A stretch of 64,000 nucleotides of DNA from an uncultured cyanobacterium (lineage in GTDB: Bacteria > Cyanobacteriota > Cyanobacteriia > Cyanobacteriales > Cyanobacteriaceae): assembly GCA_963710605.1 (NCBI GenBank), contig CAVQBA010000001.1, positions 192,001 to 256,000 on the forward strand, written 5' to 3'. Below, one piece after another: positions 33,681 to 56,758 of this stretch. A program made the translations under genes and the position numbers. A model generated the notes under the pieces. The model had not been told where the DNA came from. It searched no databases and was given only the letters and a program-made list of their open reading frames with translations. Positions within the stretch are counted from its first letter, which is position 1. Every line of letters starts with the position of its first letter.

Positions 33681-33881
33681 ATGTTACCAGAGTATATCTA
33701 TGTGACGATCGGTATCTTGTTGTTTATTAGTGTGGTTGCTAGTAAATTATCGGGTAAATTTGGCATTCCGGGGTTACTGATATTTCTTTTCATTGGTATG
33801 TTAGCAGGTTCAGAAGGAATTGGCGGTATTTATTTTGATGATTACTCCTTCGCTCAATCAATTGGGGATGTTGCTTTAATA
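33681..33881 (+). pseudogene. cvrA: 5' remnant of a K+/H+ antiporter (CPA1, CvrA/NhaP2-like)
   Basis: KFGIPGLLIFLFIGMLAGSEGIGGIYFDDY...GDVALI, after which similarity is lost (expected ILF.GG absent). Confidence 0.85.
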
Positions 33882-33932
33882 TCATACAAAAAATCGGCTA
33901 AGTTAGGAAGTTATTTTTGCGTGACTCCTAAG

Positions 33933-34092
33933 TATAGTCGTTTTAATTAAAATTGAGACAGTCTTAATAACAGTAAAAATGTGAGCTTCAACCCCGCCTT
34001 GAAATAAATTGCAAGGCTAATAGAATCCGTTTAATAAATTAAACTCAAATTTTAGCCTCAAAATTGTCTCACTGTTATTTGAAATGACTATA
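33933..34092. mobile_element. ~160-bp MITE-like element (copy 2)
   Basis: TATAGTCG...TTGAGACA / TGTCTCA...GACTATA TIRs; shares CCCGCC..AAGGCTAATA..CCGTTTAATAAATTAAACTCAAA with 8658-8818. Confidence 0.78.
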
Positions 34093-34137
34093 TGTCAACA
34101 AAGGGCAAAGGTAAATTTAATTATTCTTGATCAAAGA

Positions 34138-34198
34138 CGATCGATTGAGCATATGAAGCTGTACGATCGATCGAGCATATGAAGCTGTACGATCGATT
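34138..34198. repeat. 26-bp tandem duplication bounded by CGATCG sites
   Basis: CGATCGAT(T/C)GAGCATATGAAGCTGTA twice, then CGATCG. Confidence 0.85.
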
Positions 34199-34263
34199 AT
34201 TAAACAAAAACAGTAATTAATTTTGTCTTAGAATTATGAATGTAGTCGGCTATAATTAGACTC

Positions 34264-35031
34264 ATGACGCTTATGAATAATTTGATTTCTTTAGTTACGA
34301 CAGTTTATAACCGAGAAAAATACTTAGCCGAAGCAATCCAGAGTGTGTTAAATTCTGAATATCAAAATTTTGAATATCTAATTTGGGATGATGGTTCGAC
34401 AGATAATAGTTTAAAAATTGCAAAACAGTTTGCTCAACAAGACGATCGAATTAGGGTAATTGCTTCCGAGCATAGAGGTAGGGGATATGCTTTAAAGTTA
34501 GCACTTGAAGAAACGAAGGGAGTTTATTTAGGTCTAATTGATAGTGACGATTTGATTACTAAAACTACTTTGACTGAAACTGAATGTTTGTTATCTTCTG
34601 ATTCTCAGTTGGGAATGGTTTATACAGATTATTTAGTGATCGATATTAACGGTCAAGTTAGAGGATTAGGGAAACGTTGTCAAATACCATATTCTCCACA
34701 AAGGCTACTTGTAGATTTCATGACTTTCCATTTTCGCTTAATACGCCGAGAAGTTTATCAGAAGGTGGGCGGAATTAATCCCGAATTCAGTGCGGCTCAA
34801 GATTACGATTTATGTTTAAAGTTATCAGAAGTGACTAAAATAGAGCATTTATCAAAGCCTTTATATTATTATCGTCATCATTCAGAAAATATTTCTCACC
34901 AACGACAATTGGAGCAGATTCATTTTACCCAAAGAGCAATTAATGAAGCCTTACAGCGACGAAATTTAGCCTCTAAATTAGAATTAACAGTAGAAATTCG
35001 TCCCCGATACATTTTGAAAAAAAGAGTTTGA
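34264..35031 (+). CDS. Glycosyltransferase family 2
   Basis: VYNREKYL.EAI.SVL, DDGSTD, DSDD, QDYDL, YYYRHH. Confidence 0.92.
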   Translation: MTLMNNLISLVTTVYNREKYLAEAIQSVLNSEYQNFEYLIWDDGSTDNSLKIAKQFAQQDDRIRVIASEHRGRGYALKLALEETKGVYLGLIDSDDLITKTTLTETECLLSSDSQLGMVYTDYLVIDINGQVRGLGKRCQIPYSPQRLLVDFMTFHFRLIRREVYQKVGGINPEFSAAQDYDLCLKLSEVTKIEHLSKPLYYYRHHSENISHQRQLEQIHFTQRAINEALQRRNLASKLELTVEIRPRYILKKRV

Positions 35032-35231
35032 ATTTTTATTCTTATTGGGGTGTTAATATTTTTACCGAAAGTAGAAGTTAAAGTACTGTAGTATTAGTTA
35101 AATACTGATTAATACGATCTATTATCATAATAAAATTGGTGTATTACACTTAATGTTTAATTATGAATACGATCTTTTAGGTTTATTTTTTTACTCGATA
35201 CGTACCCGACTATAATCTATAACGATCGTAC

Positions 35232-35456
35232 TTAACCTACTTTTTCTGACAAAACGCTAGGTAAAGGTAGCTTTTCACCTGAGAGTCGATAATCCTCGAT
35301 TAATAATTCTAAAACCTCCATACCACGATTGACAGCCTCAGTATAAGTGTCACCATGAGTACGCCATTGTTGTCCTGGAAAATCAGGTAATCCCACCAAG
35401 TAACAATCATCAATATTAGACCATTGAATTACCATTTTATATTTATGATTAGTCAT
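35232..35456 (-). CDS. hicB: HicB antitoxin
   Basis: YKMVIQWS..D.CY.V.LPDF...THGDTY.EA. Confidence 0.88.
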   Translation of the reverse strand: MTNHKYKMVIQWSNIDDCYLVGLPDFPGQQWRTHGDTYTEAVNRGMEVLELLIEDYRLSGEKLPLPSVLSEKVG

Positions 35457-35661
35457 TTGTTTTTCTCTTTTTTACATCTTTAATTGCTTGAAAAACCTCT
35501 TTCTCTTGATAATCTCTAGCGTCGTTACCGTCTTTGCCTGAGATAGTTATTCGACCTAAATATAAAGGATGAAACCAGTTAGAGTGACTTCCTTTTCCTG
35601 TTCTTTGAGAAAAACCAGCTTTTTTAAGAATTTTTTTTAATTCTCGAATTTTCTTAGGCAT
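35449..35661 (-). CDS. hicA: HicA toxin
   Basis: MPKKIRELK..L.KAGF...GKGSH..W.HP. Confidence 0.9.
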   Translation of the reverse strand: MPKKIRELKKILKKAGFSQRTGKGSHSNWFHPLYLGRITISGKDGNDARDYQEKEVFQAIKDVKKRKTND

Positions 35662-35945
35662 TAGTTAATTAATTTTTCGAGTTTTAATATATCATAAGTT
35701 TTATAATATTTTTTTCTACCCTTACAAAAACCAAATCTCATCTTGACCATCTAACCACTACAAATACAATATTACTTCTTCAATTGTCGCTGTAGCTATC
35801 GCTACTGTTTATAAAATACGCACGATCGTTTTAATTAATCGATCGAGTGAGTCATACTCGTATTGAGTACGATGAGCTAACCCGTCAATAGTAGCGATAA
35901 TATTACCGATAGGAGGGTGTCTGGTATTAATTAATGAGCTTGATG

Positions 35946-36005
35946 GTGCGTTCCAACCAATAAAATTAGCGAGAACGACAGTAATTTTACCGAACGTACC
36001 CTACA
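35946..36005. repeat. REP-like hairpin element (GGTGCGTTC...GAACGTACCCTAC)
   Basis: Ungapped similarity to 37852-37908; GTAG end on the minus strand. Confidence 0.7.
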
Positions 36006-36042
36006 GATTTACTACAGATCAACGATCGCACTTGAGCGTACT

Positions 36043-36504
36043 TTATGTTAACTTAAATTCCTTTTTGAAATCTTTTATAGAGTTTTGAAAATCATTATAG
36101 ATAATTTCTTCTTCATTAAGAAATCTGCAATATTCTGATACAAATATTTTGACTCCATTCCAAATAGAATAGACAAAATCATTTTCTTTTAGTGTCAATA
36201 TTTCTACACTTTCGCTATCTTTCAAGATTAATTTATTTTCTTTTTCTCCAAAATTTTTGACGAAAAAAAGTTTGAAAGATGAATCTGCTCCCACAAAACA
36301 GTATGACTTTTTATTTTTATCTTTTAATAAGATTCTAATTCCATCTAATAGTTCCACGATAGAAATAAATATCATCATTGATTGACTACTATTTAGTTTT
36401 TTAGGAGGATATAATGTCTTTTTAGTCTCTATAATTATAAAACCTTGACTAAAACTATCAATATCAGATAAAGGTTCATTTAACTTGAAAATAAATTTTA
36501 TCAT
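36043..36504 (-). CDS. Putative immunity protein 4
   Basis: Directly follows toxin tip 4; low GC; cytoplasmic-looking. Confidence 0.7.
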   Translation of the reverse strand: MIKFIFKLNEPLSDIDSFSQGFIIIETKKTLYPPKKLNSSQSMMIFISIVELLDGIRILLKDKNKKSYCFVGADSSFKLFFVKNFGEKENKLILKDSESVEILTLKENDFVYSIWNGVKIFVSEYCRFLNEEEIIYNDFQNSIKDFKKEFKLT

Positions 36505-36514
36505 CAGTTTACTT

Positions 36515-37850
36515 TTACTCACTTCTAGGCGGAAATATAGTGACAACTTCTTCAGTTACCGTATCAACAATAACTCTTACTCGTTCTCTTTTGCCATTAA
36601 CTTTAATTCTATCTTCAAAAGTTTGTACGTTTCTTGAAGGATCAGAAATTCTAGTTCCTTCTTTAATAATTTTATTTGCTCCTTCTTGTAATTGATCTCT
36701 TGTCGTTCCAGGTGCGAAAAGATCTGCTGGTCGCTTTTGTTGGATGATCACCCGTAACATGACGAGCATCAATATGTATCCATCCTTTTTTTAAATTTCC
36801 GTCGAGTATTTTGGCTGTACCTCTCCAAGGTGGTTTTACAGAACTGTCAAAATATGGATTAGAAAAATCATCATTAGCAGGACAAGAATTTCCCGTATGA
36901 GTAATTGGTTCAACATTGGATTCAGTAGGAGAAGAAGGAGGATTTGTATCAATATCAGGTTTTGTCGTATGTCCTGTATTGTCAGAAAATTTGTTCTCTT
37001 CACGATCGGGAATACCTTCAGGGTTAGGAAAATGATTATCTGGAAGAGACTTAATGTTATTTCGCTCTCGATCGCGATTTAATTTTTGCTTTTGTTTTTC
37101 TATTTGGTAAATACTATAAAGAGCAAAGCCTGCTGGAAGTATTACATCTTTAATAATGATTGTTCCAAATATCGCTGCTTCGCCGAATGGATCGATCGCA
37201 TTAGTTGCATTATTACCAACATAACGATAAAGATTAGCATCACCACCAGCAAACCCTATGGTATCCTCAGAGATAAACCTTCCTACCGAGCTGTCATAAT
37301 AACGAGAGCGGTAATAATGTTGCCCGGTTTCCTCATCTAACTCCCTGCCCGTGTAACCATTACGGAAATCAATAGATGGATCAGTCTCAGAAGTTACCTC
37401 ACCGAAAGCATCATATGTAATGGAATTAATTACATCACCATTATGATCCAAAACATAACGAACCGAACCTAAATTATCAGCTAAAGCCCAATAAACGCTA
37501 CCATCTGCATTCTCTTGTGCAATTACTTGGTCAACTGTGACACCATGAAGGAATCTTTCCTTTAAATTACCCTCTCCATCAAAAACGAGTGCGATTTCAT
37601 CACTATCTAACACATATCTCTCTTCTAGATCGAGATTACCATCGCCATCGCTATCTACCGATTTAGCAATTCTTCTGTCATAAACATCGTATTGGTATTC
37701 AACAGTAGCCAGAACATTACCACTAACATCTTTAGTTACAACACCTACGAGTCGATTACGATAATCCCACTGATACTCAGTCACCTCACTAGTAGTATGG
37801 TTATTAGCATCCGTAAGCGAAATTAAATTATTGGCACTGTCATAGACAAA
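36515..37850 (-). CDS. rhs: Orphan Rhs cassette 4 (core type B) with predicted RNase-like tip; frameshift near 36735
   Basis: YTGRELD..RSRYYD..GRFISED..DPFG; tip GWIHIDARH continuing in ORF 36515-36772 to VVTIFP; no clear start. Confidence 0.85.
37189..37789. repeat. Rhs core type B direct repeat (partner 39630-40230)
   Basis: Near-identical ~600 bp at offset 2441. Confidence 0.9.
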
Positions 37851-37851
37851 A

Positions 37852-37908
37852 CGTTCCCACCGAAAAAATTAGTATGAACGACAGTACTTTGTAAAGACGC
37901 ACCCTACA
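37852..37908. repeat. REP-like element with truncated left arm, at the cassette 3/4 junction
   Basis: CGTTCCCAC...GAACGACAGTA...ACGCACCCTACA aligns with 35949-36005. Confidence 0.7.
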
Positions 37909-38419
37909 AGAGGGCGATCCCACGATTATTCTGCTCGTATTTCTTTAACAAAGCAATCAGGACCAAATATTTTTCTGTGATTCTTAAAGTATCTAGAAAA
38001 TCTTCTTCATTTAAATATTCAAAATAAATTTCTAAATTATTTTCTAGTTGTATTTTAATCGCAAATTCACTAGGATTATTATCAGAAGCATATTTTGATT
38101 TTAAAAAAAATATTTTTTTGATTATCCTACCAATTCTCGGTTTCCAAAAACTATTTTTTGTAAGATTACGATATTCATAACTATCTCCATATTTCTCCAT
38201 AAGACCTTTTTTAACGCCAATACTCTCAATTTCTAGTAAAGAGTAAAAGTTTAAAATATTACCATCGTCCAACATTATCTCTATCGGTCCGTCAGCAGTT
38301 TGTTCAAAATCATTTCGAACAAAATCATCTTTAAAAAGTTGACGATTTACTTGAATAATTTTACGACCTGAAAGACTTTGAAGAAGATCTAAATTGCAAG
38401 AAGGAATTCCTAAATTCAT
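37904..38419 (-). CDS. Putative immunity protein 3
   Basis: Starts 15 bp after the toxin 3 stop; the C-terminus may be frameshifted. Confidence 0.7.
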   Translation of the reverse strand: MNLGIPSCNLDLLQSLSGRKIIQVNRQLFKDDFVRNDFEQTADGPIEIMLDDGNILNFYSLLEIESIGVKKGLMEKYGDSYEYRNLTKNSFWKPRIGRIIKKIFFLKSKYASDNNPSEFAIKIQLENNLEIYFEYLNEEDFLDTLRITEKYLVLIALLKKYEQNNRGIALL

Positions 38420-38434
38420 AATCTTTAAAAATAA

Positions 38435-41200
38435 CTATTGATTAATAAATGTATCAAATTGACTATCTATAATTCTAACTCCTCTTCTTGTTTCTGGATT
38501 AAAAATATCAACACGTTCTTGTCCATTTCGATTAGTTCCTCTTTGAATTATAGGATTCTCATTTGTGTCTCCTAATACTTCTCTAATAATTTGATTTGCT
38601 GAATCTTGGCTTTTACTAAAATCTTCACCTTGAAAAGCTGAATTTTTTGAAGGACTTCCATCTAATCTTTTTCTTATAGCTTGAAGGGCTCGTGAATCTT
38701 CTGAATTTGGACGTGATGGTCTCATAGAAGAATCAATTATATCATTAATATCGGATATACCAATAGTTCTACTAACAGTTTCATTCATTCTCACATCACA
38801 CATATTATGAACTAAAATAGCTAGTTCAGAAATATAATAAGTGTGATAATTTTCTACCTCAAAATTATAGACAGTTTCCTCGCCCTCACGCCAAGTAACA
38901 GATTCAATAGATAAGACTTTACCATCTTTAGTTAAGAGCTCATCACCTACTTGTAACTCATGAGCTAACTTCCAACCATAGTCTCTTATCCAGAAAGGAT
39001 GGGTTGAAGTACAGGTAATTTTTACCTCATTTACAATAATATCGCCGACTTTATCTACTTGTTTTTGAAATAATTGTTTGACAACAGAAATTTCACCTGA
39101 AAACTGCTCACTTCCAGTGTAAACTCGATCGCCTATTTTAATTTGTTCAATAGGAATAAAACCATATGGAGTAGCAATCAAAGTTCCAGCAACAAAACAC
39201 TCTATTTGACGAGCTAAACCATCTACCGCATCATCGATGTTACCATCAGCACCTTTTATAAAAGAATCTAATTGTTTAAAAAGCGGTTGAACAATTTCTC
39301 CTAAAGCACCACCTAGTCCACCGATTAAACCTTGTTGAAGAACGTTATCAGATAAATTACAACCTGTGAGTGCATTTCGACCAACTTGTAATCCTGCATC
39401 AATACCTCCACTAGCAAGACCATTGACAACAACTCTTTGTAGTAGAGAAGCAAATTTAACCGCCGCTTTAGCTGAAACAACACCACCAAGTGCACCACTT
39501 AAGGCACTCATGGCAACAGACATCCAATCGACTTTAGAAATATCGCCTTTATGTTGAATTAGTTGAATTGTTAAATCGACACCTGCACCAATACCAGCCT
39601 GTACCGCAAAATTAGCAAATTCACCAGTAGGATCGGTTGCATTAATCGAATTATTACCAACATAACGATAAAGATTAACATCGCCACCAGCGAAGCCAAT
39701 CGTATCCTCAGAAATAAACCTTCCTACCGAGCTATCATAATAACGAGAGCGATAATAATGTTGCCCTGTTTCTTCATCTAACTCTCTGCCCGTGTAACCA
39801 AAACGGAAATCAACAGATGGATCAGTCTCAGAAGTTACCTCACCGAAAACATCGTATATAATCTCATTAATTATATTTCCATCATTATCTAAAACATAAC
39901 GAACCGAACCTAGATTATCAGCCAAAGCCCAATAAACGCTACCATCCGCATTCTCTTGTGCAATTATTTGGTCAACTGTGACACCATGAAGGAATCTTTC
40001 TTTTAGATTACCCTCTCCATCAAAAACGAGTGCGATCTCATCACCATCCAATACATATCTCTCTTCTAAATTGGGATTACCATCACCATCGCTATCAACA
40101 GACTTAGCAATTCTTCTGTCGTAAACATCATATTGATACTCAACCGTAGCGAGAACATTACCACTAGCATCCTTAGTTACAACCCCTACCAGTCGATTGC
40201 GATAATCCCACTGATACTCAGTCACCTCACCTGTATCAATATCGGTACGATCGAGACGATTACCTTCATTGTCGTAGGTATAATTGTAAACACCATCAGA
40301 CAATAACTGATTATTATCACCTGTCACATAACCGCCGTTAGTGCGATTACCAGTACCGTCATAACCATAACTTTCATCATCCTGATAATTATAATCAGCA
40401 TTCGTTAATTGATTCGTGTCGTCATAATTATAAACAACAACACCATCAGGACTGGTAAGCTGCTCTATACGGTTAGCCTCATCATAAATCCAATTGTAAT
40501 TAGCTATAGTCCCAGTACTATTGTTATGAACTAAATCAATCAAACGACCAAAATCATCGTAGTCATAATCACTTTCTGCGACTAATTGCGTACCAGCTAG
40601 ATCGGAGAATCGATCGATCTCTTTTAACTGTGAAGCCTTATCATAAGTAAAATCAACCCGTTTATTAGTTACCCCATTACCCGATTGAGTAATACTCACA
40701 ATTCGATTTAATTCGTCTAATGTAAACTCTTCAATACCCGATACAACGCCCTCGATCGTATCAGTAACCGACAACATATTACCGACATTGTCATATTGAT
40801 AATTTAAGACAACATTAGGAACACCAACAGTACCTAAATTATCGATCGAAGTGAGTAAGTTTCTTTCGTCATAGCTGTACCCATAGCTGGAAAAGCTGTC
40901 AGACACGGATAAAAGACGACTACCTTTGTCGTAATCATAAATTATGAGATTTGAACCATCCTCCCATTCTTCTTGAGTAAGACGATTTAAACTATCATAG
41001 CTGTAATTAGTAGTGCGGTTATTTCGATCGGTCATCTCAATCAAATTACCCGCCCCATCGTATTCATAAGTACGAATGAAACCTAATTGGTTGGTATCAG
41101 TTAAAAGTCGATCGACACCATCGTAAGTATAAGTCGTCGTATTATCCTCACTATCAGTAAGACTTAAAAGATTACCAACCTCATCATATACATAGATAGT
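38435..41200 (-). CDS. rhs: Rhs cassette 3 (core type B): YD repeats, Gly/Ala-rich spacer, pretoxin Hint domain and RNase-like tip; 5'-truncated
   Basis: DPTG; CFVAGTLI...HPF...VYNFEVENYHTYY..LVHN; tip RALQ..SAF..GVR; the frame stays open upstream of 41044 with YD repeats but has no ATG. Confidence 0.9.
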   Translation of the reverse strand, partial: TIYVYDEVGNLLSLTDSEDNTTTYTYDGVDRLLTDTNQLGFIRTYEYDGAGNLIEMTDRNNRTTNYSYDSLNRLTQEEWEDGSNLIIYDYDKGSRLLSVSDSFSSYGYSYDERNLLTSIDNLGTVGVPNVVLNYQYDNVGNMLSVTDTIEGVVSGIEEFTLDELNRIVSITQSGNGVTNKRVDFTYDKASQLKEIDRFSDLAGTQLVAESDYDYDDFGRLIDLVHNNSTGTIANYNWIYDEANRIEQLTSPDGVVVYNYDDTNQLTNADYNYQDDESYGYDGTGNRTNGGYVTGDNNQLLSDGVYNYTYDNEGNRLDRTDIDTGEVTEYQWDYRNRLVGVVTKDASGNVLATVEYQYDVYDRRIAKSVDSDGDGNPNLEERYVLDGDEIALVFDGEGNLKERFLHGVTVDQIIAQENADGSVYWALADNLGSVRYVLDNDGNIINEIIYDVFGEVTSETDPSVDFRFGYTGRELDEETGQHYYRSRYYDSSVGRFISEDTIGFAGGDVNLYRYVGNNSINATDPTGEFANFAVQAGIGAGVDLTIQLIQHKGDISKVDWMSVAMSALSGALGGVVSAKAAVKFASLLQRVVVNGLASGGIDAGLQVGRNALTGCNLSDNVLQQGLIGGLGGALGEIVQPLFKQLDSFIKGADGNIDDAVDGLARQIECFVAGTLIATPYGFIPIEQIKIGDRVYTGSEQFSGEISVVKQLFQKQVDKVGDIIVNEVKITCTSTHPFWIRDYGWKLAHELQVGDELLTKDGKVLSIESVTWREGEETVYNFEVENYHTYYISELAILVHNMCDVRMNETVSRTIGISDINDIIDSSMRPSRPNSEDSRALQAIRKRLDGSPSKNSAFQGEDFSKSQDSANQIIREVLGDTNENPIIQRGTNRNGQERVDIFNPETRRGVRIIDSQFDTFINQ

Positions 41201-41214
41201 AAAAATATACTAAT

Positions 41215-42213
41215 TTAATCAGCCAAATTATTAATATGTTCTCTCATTTTCTTTATATCTTTTCTATCCACTTGATTATGATGAATTTCAAAATCTTTCA
41301 ATTTTTTTAACTGATAAATTGAATCAGGGATATTTTTTATTTGATTATGATCGAGCCATAAACATCGAAGATTTATGTTTTTAGCAAAATTAGCAAATAC
41401 ATTCTTTATTTGATTATGACTTAATTGTAATATTTCTAAATTACTTAGCTCTAAAAATATATTATTAATTTGGGTTATTTGATTATTACATAAATTTAAC
41501 TTTTTAAGTTTTTTTAATTTGGATATATGATTGGGTATTTCGCTAATCTGATTCTCATATGAATAGAAAGACTCAAGAAGATTTAAAGAAAAAACTATTT
41601 CAGGTATTTGAGTAAATAAATTACGACTTAAATTAAAGTATATTATTTGATTATCATATTTAGATTTTTTTAATTCAATATCCCTTATTTTATTACCATC
41701 TAAATTTAGAGAGTTTAATTTATTAAGGTTAAAAAGATAAAAAGGTACATTGACTATTTCATTGTAACTAAAATCTAAGATTTCTATTTGTGATAAATTT
41801 GTTATTGAATTAGGAATAAATTCGATATAATTTCCCCCTAATTTCAAAGATGTTAAATTAGTAATTTCAGTGAGACATTTAGAAAAACAATTAATTTTGT
41901 TTGAAAATAAATTTAAATCAAATAAATTTTCTAGCATAGATATAGAATCTGCTATTTTCTCAATTTGATTTCGTTCCAAAATTAGTTGTTGTAGATTAGT
42001 TAATTTATAAATATTTTCAGGAATTTCTGTAATATTATTATTAGTTAAATCTAAATATTCTAAATGTTTTAATTCAAAAACTTCATCAGGAATGTAACTT
42101 AACTTTTCATCATCACCATACCAGTTCTCACGAGAGAAATCTAAAACATCAGATTTTTCTTGTTGGCATTGTTTTAATTTTTCTTGAAAAGAATCAGGTA
42201 TCTTATTCATCAT
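41215..42213 (-). CDS. Leucine-rich-repeat protein, putative immunity protein 2
   Basis: About 12 LxxLxLxxNxIxxIP repeats, directly after toxin tip 2. Confidence 0.85.
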   Translation of the reverse strand: MMNKIPDSFQEKLKQCQQEKSDVLDFSRENWYGDDEKLSYIPDEVFELKHLEYLDLTNNNITEIPENIYKLTNLQQLILERNQIEKIADSISMLENLFDLNLFSNKINCFSKCLTEITNLTSLKLGGNYIEFIPNSITNLSQIEILDFSYNEIVNVPFYLFNLNKLNSLNLDGNKIRDIELKKSKYDNQIIYFNLSRNLFTQIPEIVFSLNLLESFYSYENQISEIPNHISKLKKLKKLNLCNNQITQINNIFLELSNLEILQLSHNQIKNVFANFAKNINLRCLWLDHNQIKNIPDSIYQLKKLKDFEIHHNQVDRKDIKKMREHINNLAD

Positions 42214-42250
42214 GGAAATATTTTGAGAGAATTAATTTAATTGATAACTA

Positions 42251-43834
42251 TTAAAAAATAGGATTTCTAAAAGGATTTAACCATCTAGGAATTGGAGAGA
42301 TAGGAATTGGAGGGATAGTAGGAATGTCAAATGTAGGATTTGGTTGTGGTAGTGGTGGTAGTGGTGGTAGTGGTTGTTGTTGCGGACTAATCATTGGTAC
42401 CGCAGGTATTGCGATGCAAAAATTATTAAATTCGTCTGAGTCTTTCCAACGAAATTTTAGTTCGGTGACATTTTTATATCCTCTCGTATGATGTCTATAT
42501 TCTATTCTTCTGTTAAGTTTTGTTGGCTGTAAATCAATCGTTGGTAGAGGACCTGATTTTCCAACAGATATCAAACTGGCTTGTCCACCTTCTCTTTCTC
42601 CTTGTCTTAGACTTGCGAAACTACCATTAACTTTTAATTTATAAGTTAAACTCCAAGCTGAAACAGGGAAATTTGGATTATTACGATCTGTTGTTAATCG
42701 ATTAGTGGCTATATTTTCTCGTGTTGTTATGCTTTTAAAAGCAATTAAAGCTCTGCTATATGCCTGTGCATAATTTTTATATACCGTTTTACTTTGATAG
42801 CCACTTGGTATTTTGCCTATAGTATTAGGAGAAGGTTCAAAAGTATTTAAAAGTGTTGTTAACTCTGCTGATGCTAACCCAAAAGGATCGATCGCATTAA
42901 CGGGATTGTTATCAACATACCCATATAAATTATAAGTCCCACTATCAAAAGAAATAGGATCGACACTGATAAACCTGCCAGTCTTACCATTATAATATCT
43001 GGCTCTGTAATAGTATAAATCTATCTCCTCATCCCATTCACGTCCAGTAAAGCGATAACGACTATCAACAGACGCATCAGTTTCCGATACCACATTGCCA
43101 TAAGAATCATAAGTAAGATGATTGACCACATCCCCAGTGTTATCCACTAAATCACGAATCGTACCTAAATGGTCAGTTAAAAGCCAAGTTATATTACCAT
43201 TGCTATCCTCTTGAGCTAAAACTTGGTCAATACCTGCACCATGAAGATAACGCATATCCAACTCCACACCGCTACCATCATCGACAAAATCAAGAATTAC
43301 ATCCTCCCTGTCGTAAACAAAATAAGTCGCAATACCATCAACCACTTTTGATAACCTTTGCCCAAACATATCGTAACTAAACTCAACAGTTTGTGACACA
43401 TTATTACTACTATCAAAGTCAGTTACTGCCACCAAGCGATTGAGATAATCCCATTCAAATAGCCTGACCTCACCTGTAGCAATGGTAGTTTGAGAAATTA
43501 GATTACCCTCATCATCATAATCATAGTTATATACTCCATCAGAGAGTAACTCATTATTAACTCCTGTGTCATAGCCTGTTATAGTACGATTACCATTATC
43601 ATCGTAGGAATAAGTTTCATCATCATTATCAATATCGCTGTGAGTAGCGTTTAATAATTGATTACAATCGTCATAAGTAAAACTAGAAGTACCATCAACA
43701 TCGATAAGACTTAAAAGATTACCAACTGCATCGTAGGTATAAGTCGTTGTGAAATTTTCACTATCAGTTTGAGTTATTAGACGATTAATCTTATCATAGG
43801 AATAAGTGGTAAGATTACCTAGCCCATCAATCAT
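42251..43834 (-). CDS. rhs: Orphan Rhs cassette 2 (core type A) with an unknown/BECR-like tip and Pro-rich tail
   Basis: FTGREWD..RARYY..GRFISVDP..DPFG; tip with SGPLPTIDL..ELKF and PLPPLPPLP. Confidence 0.88.
   Translation of the reverse strand: MIDGLGNLTTYSYDKINRLITQTDSENFTTTYTYDAVGNLLSLIDVDGTSSFTYDDCNQLLNATHSDIDNDDETYSYDDNGNRTITGYDTGVNNELLSDGVYNYDYDDEGNLISQTTIATGEVRLFEWDYLNRLVAVTDFDSSNNVSQTVEFSYDMFGQRLSKVVDGIATYFVYDREDVILDFVDDGSGVELDMRYLHGAGIDQVLAQEDSNGNITWLLTDHLGTIRDLVDNTGDVVNHLTYDSYGNVVSETDASVDSRYRFTGREWDEEIDLYYYRARYYNGKTGRFISVDPISFDSGTYNLYGYVDNNPVNAIDPFGLASAELTTLLNTFEPSPNTIGKIPSGYQSKTVYKNYAQAYSRALIAFKSITTRENIATNRLTTDRNNPNFPVSAWSLTYKLKVNGSFASLRQGEREGGQASLISVGKSGPLPTIDLQPTKLNRRIEYRHHTRGYKNVTELKFRWKDSDEFNNFCIAIPAVPMISPQQQPLPPLPPLPQPNPTFDIPTIPPIPISPIPRWLNPFRNPIF
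42885..43707. repeat. Rhs core type A direct repeat (partner 44834-45656)
   Basis: Near-identical ~820 bp at offset 1949. Confidence 0.9.
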
Positions 43835-43881
43835 TGTAATAATCTTACCGATTACACCTAACTATAAAAGAGACAATCATA

Positions 43882-44256
43882 TTAAAGACATGTAAGATAG
43901 TATTGAGCTCTAATAGTAGATAAAGTATCATTTTCATCTACAGTCCAATGGATTATCCAATCATCTCTACATATAAAGCCTGATATAGAAAAAGATGCTA
44001 CTTTTTCAGAAGTTACATTTGACGTGTCAAGAGAAAATCCTTGTTTAGATAAACTTTCAACTATTACAGTATTATTTATTCCTATTGGAAATGCATCATT
44101 GACCCTTTCTTTAAATTCTGTTTGAGCTACTAAATAATTTGAAGGAAGATTACGTGCCATTGAAGGAGTTTTTTGATAATTCCATAACCTGATTACAATT
44201 ATCAGAATAATAAATCCAAATATAATCATTAAAAATATTTTGATATGTTTTATCAT
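43882..44256 (-). CDS. Putative membrane-anchored/periplasmic immunity protein 1
   Basis: N-terminal TM, two Cys in the C-terminal half; follows toxin tip 1. Confidence 0.7.
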   Translation of the reverse strand: MIKHIKIFLMIIFGFIILIIVIRLWNYQKTPSMARNLPSNYLVAQTEFKERVNDAFPIGINNTVIVESLSKQGFSLDTSNVTSEKVASFSISGFICRDDWIIHWTVDENDTLSTIRAQYYLTCL

Positions 44257-44307
44257 TTTTTATATTTTTGTAAATTTTGAAGTAGTTTATAAAGAGTAGA
44301 TTTGAGT

Positions 44308-47300
44308 TTAAGGATAAATACTAGTTCCTATATTTTTTGATTTTACACCTGTAAAAATATCTATTTCCCAGGCGGGAGGATCAATACCAACTTTAGGAAA
44401 AGGACGTAATAACTGTGGTAAAGCCAATTCTAAAATAGTAAATGCTGCCGAATTACTATTTTTTAAAAAAGGGTTATAATTAATGTCTGAATTGGTGATT
44501 ATTTGAGAATATGCTTTAGTTTTAGAGAGTATAGATGGTGCATATTTAAGGCAATCTTCTTCATAAACAATTTGTCTTTGAGCTATTTGTGAAGATTTAC
44601 TATAAGGTATATCCTCTTGCATAATTACTTTTCCAAATCCAAATGAACCACCAGCACTACCACTACTAGAAAGCGTATTACTTACTTGAAGAGAACCTCC
44701 TTGTTCTGGTTCACCAATAAATCCTCTACTTCCTAACATATCTGTAATAAGAATTTCAGCGTGGTGTTTAAGACCGCCAGACAAATTAATATATACTAGT
44801 TCTACTTTAAAATGTTGTTTATTTTGTCCAGAAGGATCGATCGCATTAACAGGATTATTATCAACATACCCATACAAATTATAAGTACCACTATCAAAAG
44901 AAATAGGATCGACACTAATAAACCTTCCAGTCTCCCCATTATAATATCTGGCTCGGTAGTAATAGAGTTCTATTTCTTCATCCCACTCTCTTCCAGTAAA
45001 GCGATAACGACTGTCAACAGTAGCATTAGTTTCTGATACCACATTACCATAGGAGTCATAAGTTAAATGATTGACCACATCACCGCTATTATCTACCAAA
45101 TCACGAATCGTACCTAAATGGTCAGTTAAAAACCAAGTGACATTACCATCACTATCCTCTTGTGCCAAAACTTCATCAATACCCGCACCATGAAGATAAC
45201 GCATATCTAACTCCACACCGCTACCATCATCGACAAAATCAAGAATTACATCCTCCCTATCATATACAAAATAAGTCGCAACCCCATCAACTACCTTTGA
45301 TAAACGTTGACCAAACATATCGTAACTAAATTCAACAGTTTGAATAACATCATTATCACTATCAAAGTCAGTTACTGCCACCAAGCGATCGAGATAATCC
45401 CATTCAAATAACCTAACCTCACCTGTAGCAATAGTAGTTTGAGAAATTAAATTACCTTCATTATCATAATCATAGTTATATACTCCATCAGAGAGTAATT
45501 CATTATTAACTCCTGTGTCATAGTCAGTTAAAGTACGATTACCATTATCATCATAGGAATAAATTTCATCGTCATTATCAATATCACTATGAGTAGCGTT
45601 TAACAGTTGGTCACGGGTATCATAAGCAAAAGTATTCGTGCTGTCAACATCGATAATTTGAGTAATACGACTACCCGCATCATAAGTTAAATCGTAGAAA
45701 GCGACATCATTAATACCATTATTATGAATTAAATTGGTTAGACGATTAGCACCGTCATAATCATAACTACTACTGACAAGCAAATTTGTATCAGTTAAAT
45801 CAGAATAACGATCGATCCTCTCATACTGACCAACACCGTTATAATCAAAATCTACTCGTTTATCTTCTACCCCATTACCCGATTGAGTCAAAGAGGTAAG
45901 ACGGTTAAGACGATCGTAATCATAAGTGGTAATACCGCTATCAATACCATTAATAGAATCAGAAACAGAAATGATATTACCTTGCTCGTCATAATTATAA
46001 GTTAAAACAACGTTAGGAACATCTGGAGTATTTGCATTATCAACAGTTTCTATACGCCCCATCACGTCGTAAGTATAATTATAAGTAGCGTCAGGATTAG
46101 TAATAAAGATTAACTCATTACCTGCATTATAAGAGGAAGTCGTCGAGTAAATAGGGAGGGAGTTATCATCGAGCCAAATCTCTTCTATTTGGCGGTTTAA
46201 ATTGTCGTAGCTAAAGGCTCTAACTCGATCGTTACGGTCAATAGTACGAGTTAGATTATTAGCCTCATCATAGGCAAAAGTACGAGACAAACTAAGCTCA
46301 TTAGTTTCAGTGATGACACGATTACGAGCATCGTAAGTATAACTAGTTTGATTATTAACAGAGTCAGTTACCGATAAAACATTACCAACATCATCATAGG
46401 TAGTAGTGGTAATAATATCATCACCACCATCGATGACATTACGCATCAGGATTTGTCGGTTTCGAGCATCATACTCGTATTCAGTACGATTACCGTTCCC
46501 ATCGATCGTCGCAGTGACATTACCTACTTTGTCGTATTCATAACGAGTAATATTACCTTCACCATCAGTAACTTTAATTTGTCGTCCTAAATCGTCATAT
46601 TCAAATTCAGTACGATTATCGTTTCCGTCGATAAGAGCAATTAACTGATTAGCTCGATCGTATTCATACTTAGTTTCGTTGCCTTCAGCATCAATTTCTC
46701 TGATTAATCGATCGCGATAATCATAGATATTAGTAGTTAAATTTCCAGTTTGATCAGTAGTAGAAACTAAATTATTGTTATTATTATCGTAATGAGCTTC
46801 GGTTGTGTTACCGTCAGGTTGAATAATTTCTACCAATCGATTACGACTATCGTAAATATAACGAGTTTCTCGGTTAAGAGGATCGATTGTAGAAACTAGA
46901 TTACCATTACCATCATAAGTATTAATCGTAACAGGATTGCTTAACGGACCTGCACCATCAGGATCGGCTTCGATGACTTTAATTAAACGATCTTGAGTAT
47001 CATAAACATATTCAGTGACATTACCTAACCCATCGGTCATGATAATTAGATTACCATTATCATCATAATCCATCATTTCTACTGCTTCATCTGATGCACT
47101 ACCTACAGCATATCTAGTTTCAATTAATCGATTAGCATTATCGTATTCGTATTCAGTACGATTATTGTTTTCATCGATATATACTATTTGATTACCAGCA
47201 GTATCGTATTCGTATTTAACGATCGCCTCCTCACTGGTACCTACGGCATAGATAATTTCAATTAAATTACCTGTATCGAGATGATAATTATAATCAGTAA

Positions 47301-48486
47301 TCTGACCGTTAGCATCAGTCATTTTATCGATTAACCCAGCATTCGTATAGGCATAGCGAGTCATAACGTCATCAGTTTCGCCATTACTAGGAGCATCTAA
47401 TTCCCCGACAACTCTGGTAGTAGAGACTACGTTCCCATTATCCGAATCAATCTCATAAAGAGTAACTCGACCAATTTCATCAGTATAGCTAGTTAGTTGA
47501 TTGAAAACAGGCTCATAAGTATAAAAACGTTCGTTAAACTCACCATTTTGTTGATTAATTAAGACAGAAATATTATAGTCGTTGGGGTTAACGGTTATAA
47601 TATCAAAGTCTCCATCGGTATTAACATCGACTAATAAAAAGTCTGCAAAAGAGTTACCTACCTCAAAATGATTCAAAGAGTTGAAACTTCCTTCACCATC
47701 TCCTAACCAAACAATAATAGAATTATTAGCAATATCTGGTACAGTTGGATTGCCTCCTAGATAATTAGTGACTAAATCTAGTCGTCCATCTCCATTCAAA
47801 TCAGCAAAAGCGACATTTATTGGTCTTGAGCCTTCTGGTAGAGAATAAGTAGAAAGCCGAGTAAAAGTCCCATTTTCATTCCCTTTTATTACGACTATCT
47901 GATTTTGAGAAGTACTAACGATCGCCATTTCAAGTTTACCATCTCCATTAATATCTTTCAAAGCTAATGAATCGACATCACTGGTAAAACTAAAATTACT
48001 TTGAAAAGACAGAGTACCATCTCCATTACCATTTAGTATCGAAATACTATCAGAAAAATAGTTGGTAGTTATTACGTCTTGGTTTCCATCATCATCAATG
48101 TCTTCTATGGTTATAGAAATTACTTCATCATCAAGTTCTTGATTGATTGGTTGTTCAAAAGTACCATCTCCATTACCTAAAGAGACACCGAGGAAGTAAT
48201 CTTCTTCTTCATACCCACCACCTTCAATTCGATAACCACTGATTAAGTCTAAATTTCCATCAAGATCTATATCAGCAATTGAGATAGTATCAATCCAAAT
48301 TGAATCGATTACATAATTATCGAATTCAACAAAAGTACTATCACCATAACTAGCCGTTACACTATTACCACTCTCGGTCATTAAGACTAAAGGAGGAGAT
48401 AATGGATTAATAGTCTGTGTAGGTAAATATAAACCTTTTTGTACCTCTACTGGTTGAATATTGATGGTTGTGCCATCTTTACGTAC
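44308..48486 (-). CDS. rhs: Large Rhs/YD protein (core type A) with FG-GAP repeats and an H...YNP..NSNS tip; 5'-truncated
   Basis: D.D.DG.LD FG-GAP repeats, many YD repeats, DPSG; the frame is open upstream of ATG 48381 (VRKDGTTINIQPVEVQKGLY...) up to the cvrA junction. Confidence 0.92.
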   Translation of the reverse strand, partial: VRKDGTTINIQPVEVQKGLYLPTQTINPLSPPLVLMTESGNSVTASYGDSTFVEFDNYVIDSIWIDTISIADIDLDGNLDLISGYRIEGGGYEEEDYFLGVSLGNGDGTFEQPINQELDDEVISITIEDIDDDGNQDVITTNYFSDSISILNGNGDGTLSFQSNFSFTSDVDSLALKDINGDGKLEMAIVSTSQNQIVVIKGNENGTFTRLSTYSLPEGSRPINVAFADLNGDGRLDLVTNYLGGNPTVPDIANNSIIVWLGDGEGSFNSLNHFEVGNSFADFLLVDVNTDGDFDIITVNPNDYNISVLINQQNGEFNERFYTYEPVFNQLTSYTDEIGRVTLYEIDSDNGNVVSTTRVVGELDAPSNGETDDVMTRYAYTNAGLIDKMTDANGQITDYNYHLDTGNLIEIIYAVGTSEEAIVKYEYDTAGNQIVYIDENNNRTEYEYDNANRLIETRYAVGSASDEAVEMMDYDDNGNLIIMTDGLGNVTEYVYDTQDRLIKVIEADPDGAGPLSNPVTINTYDGNGNLVSTIDPLNRETRYIYDSRNRLVEIIQPDGNTTEAHYDNNNNNLVSTTDQTGNLTTNIYDYRDRLIREIDAEGNETKYEYDRANQLIALIDGNDNRTEFEYDDLGRQIKVTDGEGNITRYEYDKVGNVTATIDGNGNRTEYEYDARNRQILMRNVIDGGDDIITTTTYDDVGNVLSVTDSVNNQTSYTYDARNRVITETNELSLSRTFAYDEANNLTRTIDRNDRVRAFSYDNLNRQIEEIWLDDNSLPIYSTTSSYNAGNELIFITNPDATYNYTYDVMGRIETVDNANTPDVPNVVLTYNYDEQGNIISVSDSINGIDSGITTYDYDRLNRLTSLTQSGNGVEDKRVDFDYNGVGQYERIDRYSDLTDTNLLVSSSYDYDGANRLTNLIHNNGINDVAFYDLTYDAGSRITQIIDVDSTNTFAYDTRDQLLNATHSDIDNDDEIYSYDDNGNRTLTDYDTGVNNELLSDGVYNYDYDNEGNLISQTTIATGEVRLFEWDYLDRLVAVTDFDSDNDVIQTVEFSYDMFGQRLSKVVDGVATYFVYDREDVILDFVDDGSGVELDMRYLHGAGIDEVLAQEDSDGNVTWFLTDHLGTIRDLVDNSGDVVNHLTYDSYGNVVSETNATVDSRYRFTGREWDEEIELYYYRARYYNGETGRFISVDPISFDSGTYNLYGYVDNNPVNAIDPSGQNKQHFKVELVYINLSGGLKHHAEILITDMLGSRGFIGEPEQGGSLQVSNTLSSSGSAGGSFGFGKVIMQEDIPYSKSSQIAQRQIVYEEDCLKYAPSILSKTKAYSQIITNSDINYNPFLKNSNSAAFTILELALPQLLRPFPKVGIDPPAWEIDIFTGVKSKNIGTSIYP

Positions 48487-48785
48487 TGATTGAGATAGTG
48501 CCTGTAGCAGTGGTAATTGCTATGTTTTTAATCTTTGTTGCTCGTCCTTTAAGTGTCTTTATTTGTACGATTTTTAATCAATACAATCGGTCAGAAAAGT
48601 TATTTATTTCTTGGGTTGGTTTAAGAGGTTCTGTGCCTATTATTTTGGCGATCGCTCCTATTACAGCCCAAATCGAAAATGCAACGGTTATTTTTAATGT
48701 CGTATTTTTTATCGTTTTGATTTCAGTCTCAGTTCAAGGTTTGACTTTAGTACCGATCGCCAAATACTTAAAATTAGATCAGTAA
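48486..48785 (+). pseudogene. cvrA: 3' remnant of a K+/H+ antiporter (CvrA/NhaP2-like)
   Basis: FLIFVARPLSV...ISWVGLRGSVPIILA...IFNVVFFIVLISV.VQG. Confidence 0.88.
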
Positions 48786-49397: not shown

Positions 49398-49449
49398 TAT
49401 AGTTAAGAGTTAACAGTTAAAAGTTAATAAGTGAGATAATTGTCAATTG

Positions 49450-51120
49450 TCAATTGTCAATTGTTGTCTGTGTTTTTACTACAGGTAATTGAGCTAGAGG
49501 AATGATTAAAGTAACAGTCGAGCCTAAATTTTCGCCCATACTATAAAACGAAATTTTCCCCCCCATTCCTTCTACTAAACGCCTAGAGATTGATAACCCC
49601 AAACCAGTACCACCGTAGGCTTTAGTTCTAAATCCATCAACTTGATAAAAATTTTCAAATAGTCTTTCTTGTTTATCTAAAGAGACACCAATACCGCTAT
49701 CTTCAACCCGAATTTTAATCATTCCGGGTAAAACTTTTTCTCGATAGGTAACAGGGGTAATAATAATTTCGACATTAATACTGATATTGCCTTCGGTAGT
49801 AAATTTTAAAGAATTACTCAACAAATTGAGCATAACTTGTAATAACCTTTGGTAATCAGCATGAAGCAAAATTTGATCATAAGTAGGGGGAAGATTAATT
49901 TCAAAACGGAGATTTTTCTTTCGGGCTTGATTGTGACCAAATTTATAAATATCTTCGCAAACTTTATTTAAAGAAATAGAATCTAAATCAAATTCCATTT
50001 TTCCGGCTTCGATTTTGGCAATATCTAAAATGTCATTAATCAGATTAAGTAAATGTAAAGCCGATTCATAAGCTTGAGTGATAAATTCTCGCTCTTCTTC
50101 TATATCATCTGCCATATCATCCAGAATTAGTTTCAGAAAACCTAAAATACCATTAAGAGGCGTTCTTAATTCGTGACTAGTACTTGCTAAAAATTCACTT
50201 TTAAGACGATTAGATTCTTCAGCTTGAATATTAGCACTCTCTAGTTTTTGGTATAAAGTGGCATGGGCCATTACTGTACCGACTTGATCACCTAATTCTT
50301 GAACTAGTTCTAATTCTGCTTGATACCAAAAGCGAACTTTGTCTAATTCAGACAAACAAATTAAACCGTTTAATTCTTGCTGATAAAAAGTAGGTACTAA
50401 TAAAATCGATCGAGCTTGAAAAAAATTATGCTCACCACCGAACAAAATTTCGGGTTGCCCAGAAGAAGAAATAGCTTTAACTATTTGAGGATAATCATTA
50501 ATCTTTAAACGATGTCCGAGTAAAGAATGACTATCACTTTTTTTATATTCTGCCTTAACTTCCAAATAATCCATTTCTGTAGTCGGTGTCAGTAAAAAAC
50601 ATTGATCAACTTTTAATTCTGTACCGATGTTGTCAACAGTTTTTTGCCAAATGGTTTCTAAATCTAAAGAGCGACGTATTTTACGGGCAATATTAGTTAA
50701 TAATTGTTGATAAGGATCAGGATTAGTCGGTAATGCGGAAGTAGAATCAACGATCGAATCATGATTAGGTAAATGATGTCCTATCACTAATACTTTATCA
50801 GCATTGCCATCTGCTAAGATAATCGGACTAATTATTAACTCAAAAGTTAAAGTGTAATTATGATACTCAAAAAGACAATGACATTGTTCAGGAATTTTAC
50901 GATTTAAAACTCGTTTTATTCTTTGTAAATAAATATCTTGTCTTTGGGGTTTTAAAACAGTAGAAAATGAAGTCTTTTGTTTTTGGTGATGGGTTAACTC
51001 AATCAAAGAAGACTGCCAATGAAAAGAAAGGTATTCTCCTTCACTCGATTGAATAAAAACTAATTCTGCACCTAAATGTGATAAGTCTTGACAATTGTAG
51101 GTGATTTGATTCAAATTCAT
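49450..51120 (-). CDS. GAF-containing sensor histidine kinase
   Basis: IRRSLDL GAF start, SHELRTPL H-box, NLLSN, DSGIG, GGTGLGL. Confidence 0.93.
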   Translation of the reverse strand: MNLNQITYNCQDLSHLGAELVFIQSSEGEYLSFHWQSSLIELTHHQKQKTSFSTVLKPQRQDIYLQRIKRVLNRKIPEQCHCLFEYHNYTLTFELIISPIILADGNADKVLVIGHHLPNHDSIVDSTSALPTNPDPYQQLLTNIARKIRRSLDLETIWQKTVDNIGTELKVDQCFLLTPTTEMDYLEVKAEYKKSDSHSLLGHRLKINDYPQIVKAISSSGQPEILFGGEHNFFQARSILLVPTFYQQELNGLICLSELDKVRFWYQAELELVQELGDQVGTVMAHATLYQKLESANIQAEESNRLKSEFLASTSHELRTPLNGILGFLKLILDDMADDIEEEREFITQAYESALHLLNLINDILDIAKIEAGKMEFDLDSISLNKVCEDIYKFGHNQARKKNLRFEINLPPTYDQILLHADYQRLLQVMLNLLSNSLKFTTEGNISINVEIIITPVTYREKVLPGMIKIRVEDSGIGVSLDKQERLFENFYQVDGFRTKAYGGTGLGLSISRRLVEGMGGKISFYSMGENLGSTVTLIIPLAQLPVVKTQTTIDN

Positions 51121-56353: not shown

Positions 56354-56758
56354 ATGCAAAAACTAGTTCAGTATTTATCGTTATCTAAGTTTAACCGCAT
56401 CAAACTATCTAATAGACTAAATTTATTACTTAATAAAATATTACTTTTGATAATTGTTTCAGTCATCTCTTTCACTATTACAACTACACCAATTTGGGCA
56501 AAGACAAAATTAGATAACCTCAATGATACTCAGAATAATTTAGCACAACAGACGAAGACGATCGCTCAAGCAAAAAAAGTTAAAACAAAACAAATTTCAA
56601 CTAACAAACTTAATACCTGCGTCAATTCAGATTGTAATTGTAAAGATTTTAAAACCCAAAAAGAAGCCCAATTAGTTTTTAATGCTTTTAGTAAAGACAT
56701 TTTTCGTTTGGATAGAGATAAAGACGGTATAGCTTGCGAAAGTTTGCCTGCTAATTAA
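56354..56758 (+). CDS. Excalibur-like Ca-binding exported protein
   Basis: TM/signal, then DCNCKDF..Q.EAQ...LDRDKDGIACE. Confidence 0.8.
   Translation: MQKLVQYLSLSKFNRIKLSNRLNLLLNKILLLIIVSVISFTITTTPIWAKTKLDNLNDTQNNLAQQTKTIAQAKKVKTKQISTNKLNTCVNSDCNCKDFKTQKEAQLVFNAFSKDIFRLDRDKDGIACESLPAN

Follow-up and report, generated by a model that had tools for sequence, protein, structure and literature searches.

The DNA analyzed here is a window of 64,000 nt from an uncultured cyanobacterium (assembly GCA_963710605.1, contig CAVQBA010000001.1, positions 192,001–256,000; coordinates below are those of the window), and between 36.0 and 48.5 kb it contains four units, R1 to R4, all on the minus strand, in each of which an Rhs core is followed by a DPxG motif, a variable tip, and a small open reading frame (ORF). 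We conclude that these units probably make up a stranded Rhs locus within a genomic island, unable to deliver toxins as it stands. The largest unit begins at a position that is internal in its relatives, the island lies between two fragments of an exchanger gene, and the longer member of each pair of related units appears to be the decapitated parent of the shorter one, with R1 the parent of R2 and R3 the parent of R4.

Array layout, the start of R1, and the insertion site

The layout agrees closely with a sequence-only reading of the window, which had proposed four minus-strand units of core, DPxG, tip, and immunity gene, built from two different Rhs core lineages, with ~820-bp cores in cassettes 1 and 2, ~600-bp cores in cassettes 3 and 4, starts within YD repeats throughout, and mosaic 5′ ends in cassettes 2 and 4. 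The Rhs-associated core domain TIGR03696 was detected in all four units (81–85 bits, cut-off 32.5), and the DPxG motif falls at residues 1182, 316, 471, and 198 of R1, R2, R3, and R4, respectively. YD (RHS) repeats of PF05593 were found in R1 (E 1.8e-82, 12 stretches), in R2 and R3 (E 1.1e-21 each), and in R4 (E 3.1e-06, 27.9 bits, cut-off 22). The open frame of each unit begins within a YD repeat, 6–35 nt past the previous stop codon, and the small ORF follows the toxin stop after a gap of 10–51 nt in all four units. By blastn, R1 and R2 share an ungapped 829-bp core repeat (type A; 44828–45656 versus 42879–43707, 88.2% identity), and R3 and R4 share an ungapped 601-bp repeat (type B; 39630–40230 versus 37189–37789, 90.0%); protein identity between the R1/R2 and R3/R4 pairs is ~47%, and R3 is collinear with residues 702–1232 of R1 at 47% amino-acid (aa) identity. 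The similarity of paired units goes no further than the DPxG codons, and no nucleotide similarity is therefore detectable between the tips. R2 and R4 open with one or two YD units that break the collinearity with R1 and R3; ~215 aa are skipped in R2 and ~260 aa in R4.

The frame of R3 is open up to 41209, 6 nt past the stop codon of the leucine-rich-repeat (LRR) gene that follows R2, and the PT-HINT domain of R3 was assigned by PF07591 (E 5e-18). The tip of R4 is interrupted by a frame break at ~36735–36750, adjoining an A4 run. A fifth Rhs remnant lies beyond R4; its YD repeat matches a YD unit of R1 at 15 of 26 residues, and its upstream junction (35949–36005, 57 nt) is 75% identical to the junction before R4 (37852–37908).

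R1 is headless. Upstream of the ATG, no stop codon interrupts its frame for 46 codons, up to 48519, and the 33 residues ahead of the ATG are Rhs sequence rather than spacer, with 76% identity to an internal stretch of a longer frame in the one other genome of the same genus (G001). That longer frame continues upstream for another 34 aa, and ahead of it a different frame of 1583 aa encodes Ig-like domains and an animal-type heme peroxidase domain (PF03098, E 1e-138). The G001 relative of R1 (contig C146, 9275–15099) is split over two frames and is cut off downstream beside mobile-element-like genes. In a 2596-aa Rhs protein from Crocosphaera sp. XPORK-15E, the motif found at the start of R1 lies at ~aa 870–890; a CarboxypepD_reg-like match and the first RHS repeats precede it, and FG-GAP repeats follow. 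FG-GAP repeats are also present near the start of R1, and because they are internal in the relatives we interpret them as a propeller inserted in the YD shell and not as an N-terminal delivery domain; a propeller inserted in a YD shell is the arrangement of TcB/TcC and the teneurins. By this comparison, R1 lacks about 870 N-terminal residues, a head that in the relatives comprises surface or adhesion domains, a plug, and the opening strands of the YD shell. Searches by tblastn with the G001 head and with residues 1–660 of the Crocosphaera protein gave no match in the 3.93-Mb assembly. R1 has no N-terminal delivery or presentation domain together with a complete shell, and because the locus lacks export and presentation domains and its shell is incomplete, toxin delivery from it seems unlikely. 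The sequence-only reading had called the largest unit headless, which the internal position of the R1 frame start in relatives bears out, with the correction that FG-GAP repeats stand near this start as an internal propeller.

The island that holds the array appears to have taken the place of ~720 bp, encoding residues 70–310, of a Na+/H+ exchanger gene. A tblastn search with a 407-aa orthologue from genome G010 as the query identified a 5′ fragment on the left flank and a 3′ fragment on the right flank, which agree in strand and frame, and found no match to exchanger residues 70–310 anywhere in the assembly. Because the 5′ part sits 14.6 kb away, the ~14.6-kb island (~33879–48494) would have replaced the intervening ~720 bp. 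Orthologues in 4 genomes of the family have open frames of 407–412 aa. The 3′ fragment covers only positions 285–374 of the 375 in PF00999, and the neighbor that had been called cvrA is more accurately a fragment of this ~407-aa PF00999 Na+/H+ exchanger.

From left to right, the island contains a dispersed repeat, a glycosyltransferase gene, hicAB, the YD stub, and the four cassettes. The repeat, which resembles a miniature inverted-repeat transposable element (MITE), has 141 other blastn matches across all contigs, mostly starting at 33933 and ending at 34092–34093. The spacer before the glycosyltransferase gene includes a ~27-bp unit in two tandem copies (34137–34195). The G+C (GC) content of the island is 33.4%, that of the window is 33.2%, and that of the small downstream ORFs is 22–28%. 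No tRNA genes were found at 28000–54000, and the island showed no ORF for an integrase or a transposase. The G001 genome, which is 67% complete, gives no pre-insertion state; its flanks are on separate contigs, nor was an orthologue of the exchanger gene detected in it.

Table 1. Features of the island, its flanks, and the Rhs array (window coordinates)
Feature	Position	Strand	Remarks
Na+/H+ exchanger, 5′ fragment (left flank)	33690–33878	+	Orthologue aa 7–69; tblastn 65% over 63 aa, frame +3
MITE-like dispersed repeat, ~160 bp	33933–34092		Left island edge, 55 bp past exchanger 5′ fragment
Family-2 glycosyltransferase gene	34264–35031	+	PF00535, E 4e-29
hicB-like	35232–35456	-	PF15919, 25 bits, just below cut-off 27
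hicA	35449–35661	-	PF07927, 38 bits, cut-off 27
Fifth Rhs remnant	35812–36000	-	63-codon open frame, single YD repeat
Putative immunity gene 4	36043–36546	-	167 aa from TTG; no family; 23% GC
R4, orphan	36515–37868	-	ORF 36672–37784, 370 aa; other frame 36515–36772; YD stub, 601-bp core copy, DPFGEA
Putative immunity gene 3	37904–38419	-	171 aa; no family
R3, 5′-truncated Rhs body	38435–41209	-	ORF 38435–41044, 869 aa; PF05593, TIGR03696; order: core, DPTGEF, Gly-rich segment, PT-HINT, 125-aa C-terminal domain
Putative immunity gene 2	41215–42213	-	332-aa leucine-rich-repeat protein; LRR_8, E 2.5e-34; 22% GC
R2, orphan	42251–43861	-	ORF 42251–43834, 527 aa; mosaic YD 5′ end, 829-bp core copy; tip: DPFGLA, then 212 aa with proline-rich tail
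Putative immunity gene 1	43882–44256	-	124 aa; N-terminal hydrophobic anchor
R1, ORF	44308–48381	-	1357 aa, ATG start; FG-GAP propeller, YD shell, core, DPSGQ, 176-aa tip
R1, as putative decapitated main Rhs gene	44308–48519	-	Rhs homology reaches ~48480
Na+/H+ exchanger, 3′ fragment (right flank)	48495–48785	+	aa 311–404 at 48495–48773; 62% over 94 aa, frame +3

Origin of the array

An orphan module is recognized by a core fragment that begins mid-repeat and is homologous to a longer rhs gene upstream, and this is what R2 has relative to R1 and what R4 has relative to R3. In enterobacteria, the layout of a main gene with orphans is explained by a model of C-terminal displacement, as set out in PMC2935791. 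Applied to the window, this model would make R1 a gene that was once the main one; behind its present tip and immunity gene would stand R2, a displaced older tip that kept the 829-bp core. A second such pair would have formed downstream from the other Rhs lineage, with R3 as the former main body and R4 as the orphan with the 601-bp core, and a one-repeat stub of a fifth unit would remain at the end of the array. The head of R1 would have been lost at the exchanger junction and that of R3 at the LRR gene. The four intact downstream ORFs could still protect against kin with the same tips, and recombination between R1 and R2 or between R3 and R4 could swap tips, solely onto headless bodies. The longest exact runs shared by R1 and R2 are 50, 36, and 34 bp and those shared by R3 and R4 are 34, 33, and 31 bp, and exact runs of such length suffice for homologous recombination. 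In Salmonella, orphan tips recombine with the main gene (PMC3967940), and such a switch of tips is conceivable here, only onto headless bodies.

The paired cores differ by 0.52 synonymous substitutions per synonymous site (dS) for R1/R2 and 0.39 for R3/R4, with ratios of nonsynonymous to synonymous divergence (dN/dS) of 0.105 and 0.118, respectively. Because these ratios are low and the differences mainly synonymous, the paired cores diverged mostly under purifying selection, as would be expected if the copies had come from working genes in different lineages rather than from in-place duplication followed by decay. A 4.7-kb contig (L024) from the metagenome-assembled genome (MAG) of another cyanobacterium contains a type-A core (81.5% identity) and then a type-B core (77–78%), and because this order is the same as in the window, mixed arrays of two lineages are not unique to the present genome. 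At positions 1–1000 of that contig, ahead of the type-A orphan, a further Rhs gene ends in a tip of a different kind that follows DPSGL, and the contig is thus built like the array of the window. The Rhs loci of genome G035, which are broken into many frames, were left out of the comparison.

Several points weigh against a stranded locus with this history. R1 still has an ATG and an unbroken frame of 4.1 kb, and tips 1–3 and the four downstream ORFs are intact, which is more order than old debris would show. The low dN/dS ratios cannot separate past from present constraint. The assembly (3.93 Mb in 7 contigs of 0.05–1.4 Mb) is 84.9% complete by marker genes, and the head or a parent could sit in DNA that was not assembled. 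The frame break in tip 4 may be an assembly error and is not countable as decay; we dropped the frameshift as a sign of decay since alaS and argS, elsewhere in the window, show comparable frameshifts. As to the route, an already truncated fragment may have been captured, or a later deletion may have taken away both the R1 head and the middle part of the exchanger gene. We infer the immunity role of all four downstream ORFs from position alone, and only the LRR protein has a known family. The antidote genes, and perhaps internal toxin–antitoxin (TA) behavior, may still matter in a locus that has lost delivery.

This last possibility can be taken further, with the headless genes used inside the cell, R1 being translated from its ATG, internal starts serving for the orphan tips, and the products acting with their immunity proteins as TA-like growth regulators or as addiction modules that stabilize the island. 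In Salmonella, Rhs toxin–immunity pairs, including an orphan, have internal promoters and behave as type II TA systems (PMC7043789). The intact frames of R1, R2, R3, and the four downstream ORFs, the short spacing of these ORFs from the toxin stops, and the presence of hicAB in the same island are all consistent with such a role. Against it, a promoter scan found 83 sites versus 78.8 ± 9.1 in shuffled sequence and a terminator scan found 6 versus 6.2 ± 2.7, no Shine-Dalgarno-like sequence is visible ahead of the R1 ATG, and tip 1 and its membrane-anchored partner look periplasm-directed and would be inactive from the cytoplasm. We regard intracellular use as unlikely.

Headless arrays might also be kept on purpose in this lineage, as immunity banks and as donors of tips and cores to head-bearing kin by natural transformation. 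The genome does hold two headless arrays, the one in the window and another at 262–273 kb of contig C5, beside one unrelated full-length Rhs gene. If true, it would be the cassettes that are selected, rather than a delivery gene resident in the genome, a reading that we consider quite unlikely.

The sequence-only reading had gone further, proposing that the array is a detached library whose tips are moved by recombination onto two full-length Rhs genes elsewhere while the immunity genes protect the cell, and it had named a BLAST search with both cores as the check, with failure to find a full-length parent counting against the idea. That search, now run, found none. With the whole array as the blastn query, only two relics were detected outside the array, both in contig C4: a 236-bp relic of an R3/R4-type core (C4:50970–51205, 82% identity, with an internal stop) and a 65-nt relic of an R3/R4-type body or core (C4:266003–266067, 94%). 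The single full-length Rhs gene in the assembly (contig C6, 858427–868107, 3195 aa) has He_PIG, Big_9, and cadherin-like (Ig-like) domains in front of its YD region; its protein is ~32% identical to R1, and it has no blastn match to the array. A 737-aa Ig-domain ORF precedes this C6 gene. The C5 locus (262000–273000) is headless as well, with two ~580-aa frames that start mid-YD and are each followed by small ORFs, and its cores are only 65–68% identical in DNA to the C6 gene. Paralogous membrane-protein ORFs and an Ig-like head fragment are also found at the C5 locus. A functional full-length main gene that could receive the orphan tips was thus not found at this completeness, R1 and R3 being 5′-truncated, and the partners of both core types are in the array itself. 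Because the assembly is 84.9% complete, parents and markers that we did not detect are to be read as not found and not as absent, and this incompleteness, the recombination of orphan tips in Salmonella, and the C4 relics, which show that type-B elements once stood elsewhere, are what the library has in its favor. By the measure that it set for itself, the reservoir idea is half refuted; since the 3.93-Mb assembly has no DNA-level parent, a library serving two parents elsewhere is unsupported, and we consider it very unlikely.

Finally, a mis-join of repeats at the array or at the exchanger junction is most improbable: this assembly has indel errors in essential genes and Rhs repeats are difficult to assemble, but the exchanger fragments flank the island in the correct order, strand, and frame, which a mis-join would not give, the repeats are merely 88–90% identical over 0.6–0.8 kb, the contigs are 0.05–1.4 Mb in length, and a MAG from a different study has the same A-then-B order of cores.

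Tips and downstream genes

None of the four tips matched Pfam apart from the PT-HINT domain of R3. For tip 1 (176 aa), a search of 1.84 billion representatives yielded 16 homologues at E ≤ 0.001; RHS repeats scored above the cut-off in 3 of the 11 homologues scanned, and 5 of the 11 aligned homologues sit after the end of an Rhs core and a DPxG motif. A sequence search of the PDB with tip 1 gave 0 matches. An AlphaFold model based upon 12 sequences had a predicted local distance difference test (pLDDT) score of 85.3. With this model, Foldseek found nothing at E ≤ 0.001, the best match being TseH at E 0.19. In a second structural aligner, the best 12 matches were all permuted papain-like enzymes (Z 3.9–7.9; unrelated folds, Z ≤ 2.4), with TseH first (Z 7.9, root-mean-square deviation (rmsd) 3.6, 125 aligned) and then CLN5 (Z 7.6), DeSI (7.3), and PPPDE1 (7.0), and Z values of 7–8 (below 8) are middling by the aligner's own scale. 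Picornavirus 2A, YiiX, and the PLAAT/H-REV107 group ranked lower, and the ESM Atlas lead was again TseH (score 0.87, 11% of cluster members). Based upon these comparisons, tip 1 is predicted to be a hydrolase that acts in the periplasm or envelope and has a permuted papain-like (TseH/PPPDE/LRAT) fold; an envelope-directed tip fits the hydrophobic N-terminal anchor of the downstream 124-aa ORF. Across the family, the motif NSNSAAF (N127-S128-N129) is invariant and contains Ser but no Cys; a His is conserved early in the domain and an N-x-N motif late in it, and a catalytic His...Cys pair was not found. The Ser of NSNSAAF presumably stands at the position of the nucleophilic Cys of the fold. Because Ser would take the place of the expected Cys, the chemistry of tip 1 is uncertain, and this, like the middling Z values, counts against the assignment.

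Matches to tip 2 were weak and were limited to 2 of 400 other cyanobacterial genomes; its PDB sequence search returned 2 matches at E ~0.9. For the C-terminal domain of tip 3, the PDB sequence search gave 0 matches, and 0 of 89 candidates reached E ≤ 0.001 among proteins of 477–1521 aa. The ESM Atlas lead for this domain was EndoU (0.88), with recognition below the threshold of the tool, and hhalign gave a probability of 0.2 for a relationship to the tip-4 family.

The second piece of tip 4 is 59–70% identical to the C-termini of 10 of 92 candidates (E ≤ 0.001), including Rhs proteins and HINT-domain proteins. These relatives carry an intact tip, and one is named an EndoU nuclease by UniRef. 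The EndoU model PF14436 matched neither of the two tip-4 pieces in the window at E ≤ 5, and among 6 relatives it gave a match in 1, at E 0.04 and 14.7 bits, under the cut-off of 25.3. In a structural model of one relative (P0004), the domain had pLDDT values of 66–87, and 10 of the 12 top matches were RNase toxins (Z 4.7–7.0), among them CdiA-CT of K. pneumoniae 342 (Z 7.0), BrnT (6.4), YxiD (6.3), and colicin D (5.5). This modeling points to a place for tip 4 in a BECR-type RNase-like family. A metagenome scan with the 85-aa piece of tip 4 found 2 weak loci with 36 residues covered, which are of no use for judging linkage to the downstream ORF.

Among the small ORFs that follow the tips, the 124-aa ORF after R1 returned only itself in a homologue search. 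The LRR ORF begins 37 nt past the R2 stop. Imm-LRR is a named immunity superfamily in the catalogue PMC3482391, and the ORF downstream of R2, which encodes an LRR protein right after a polymorphic toxin tip, is a putative member. Putative immunity gene 4 has an internal ATG at 36504, 10 nt past the tip-4 stop.

Known systems and neighboring observations

In enterobacteria, Rhs arrays of a main gene with orphans are well known, as is the way in which C-terminal displacement renews them. Compared to enterobacterial rhs loci (PMC2935791, PMC3967940, and PMC3150448), the window has the same head-to-tail order of core fragment, DPxG, tip, and small gene; its orphans likewise start within YD repeats, without a start or export signal; and the same stretch of core is common to the orphan and the upstream gene, with cores and tips decoupled. 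By contrast, the main gene here is decapitated, two unrelated core lineages stand in tandem, and the relatives have an in-shell FG-GAP propeller and Ig or peroxidase heads and not PAAR- or VgrG-binding domains. A type VI secretion system (T6SS) and PAAR proteins were not found either: neither PF05943 (TssC) nor PF05488 (PAAR) had a match in the assembly (84.9% complete), which agrees with the earlier statement that no secretion apparatus is visible in the window. In orphan immunity arrays left by sequential displacement of effectors, for example in the T6SS clusters of Vibrio cholerae (PMC5361080), antidotes are kept after their effectors have been displaced or lost, likely for protection against kin; here, the tips are kept together with the putative immunity genes and it is the delivery gene that appears to be lost.

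The model of tip 1 aligns best with proteins of the TseH, PPPDE, DeSI, and LRAT kind, at middling Z values, and tip 1 differs from them in having no Pfam match, a Foldseek E of 0.19, and Ser where Cys is expected. The model of the tip-4 family finds its best matches among the BECR RNase toxins (CdiA-CT, colicin D, RelE/BrnT, and EndoU), with PF14436 below its cut-off and the window copy split. As in TcB–TcC and teneurin shells, the Crocosphaera relative of R1 has a propeller between the first and later shell strands. No TcA-like partner was seen, R1 is without the part of the shell that precedes the propeller, and the Pfam hints are weak and sub-threshold (TcdB_toxin_midN at E 0.034 and TEN_YD-shell below cut-off).

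The array is of an ordinary kind of Rhs toxin–antidote array and not a new kind of system, and the locus has the look of a remnant left stranded rather than of a store of usable weapons. It is a clear cyanobacterial example of an Rhs array in a genome in which T6SS markers were not found; a full-text literature search returned cyanobacterial Rhs only in catalogue-type work (e.g. PMC3482391) and no orphan-array study in the text that it covered. The comparisons indicate that such arrays can combine two core lineages, with the same order in a second MAG, that the FG-GAP domain of such proteins would be an internal propeller, and that a whole array can persist once its delivery head is gone. For toxin and immunity assays, the locus supplies two families of tips that no Pfam model covers.

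Several genes elsewhere in the window are broken. The alaS gene (148–2431) is in three frames, with breaks near 803 and 950, and argS (26674–28429) is in two, with a break near 27760; each of these breaks is within or next to a short homopolymer run. An aminotransferase gene (55008–55796, with its upstream part in another frame) and an AI-2E transporter gene (56751–57677) also look broken. These breaks are most likely indel errors of the assembly, and such errors explain the low completeness of an assembly in 7 contigs. The structural conclusions drawn above are independent of single-base accuracy. Between the CCB1 and histidine kinase genes, ~28 nt at ~49437–49465 recur in >30 places in G001 with 90–100% identity. 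An ORF with a Zeta-toxin domain (14241–14816; PF06414, E 1.3e-13) adjoins an mraW-like methyltransferase gene.

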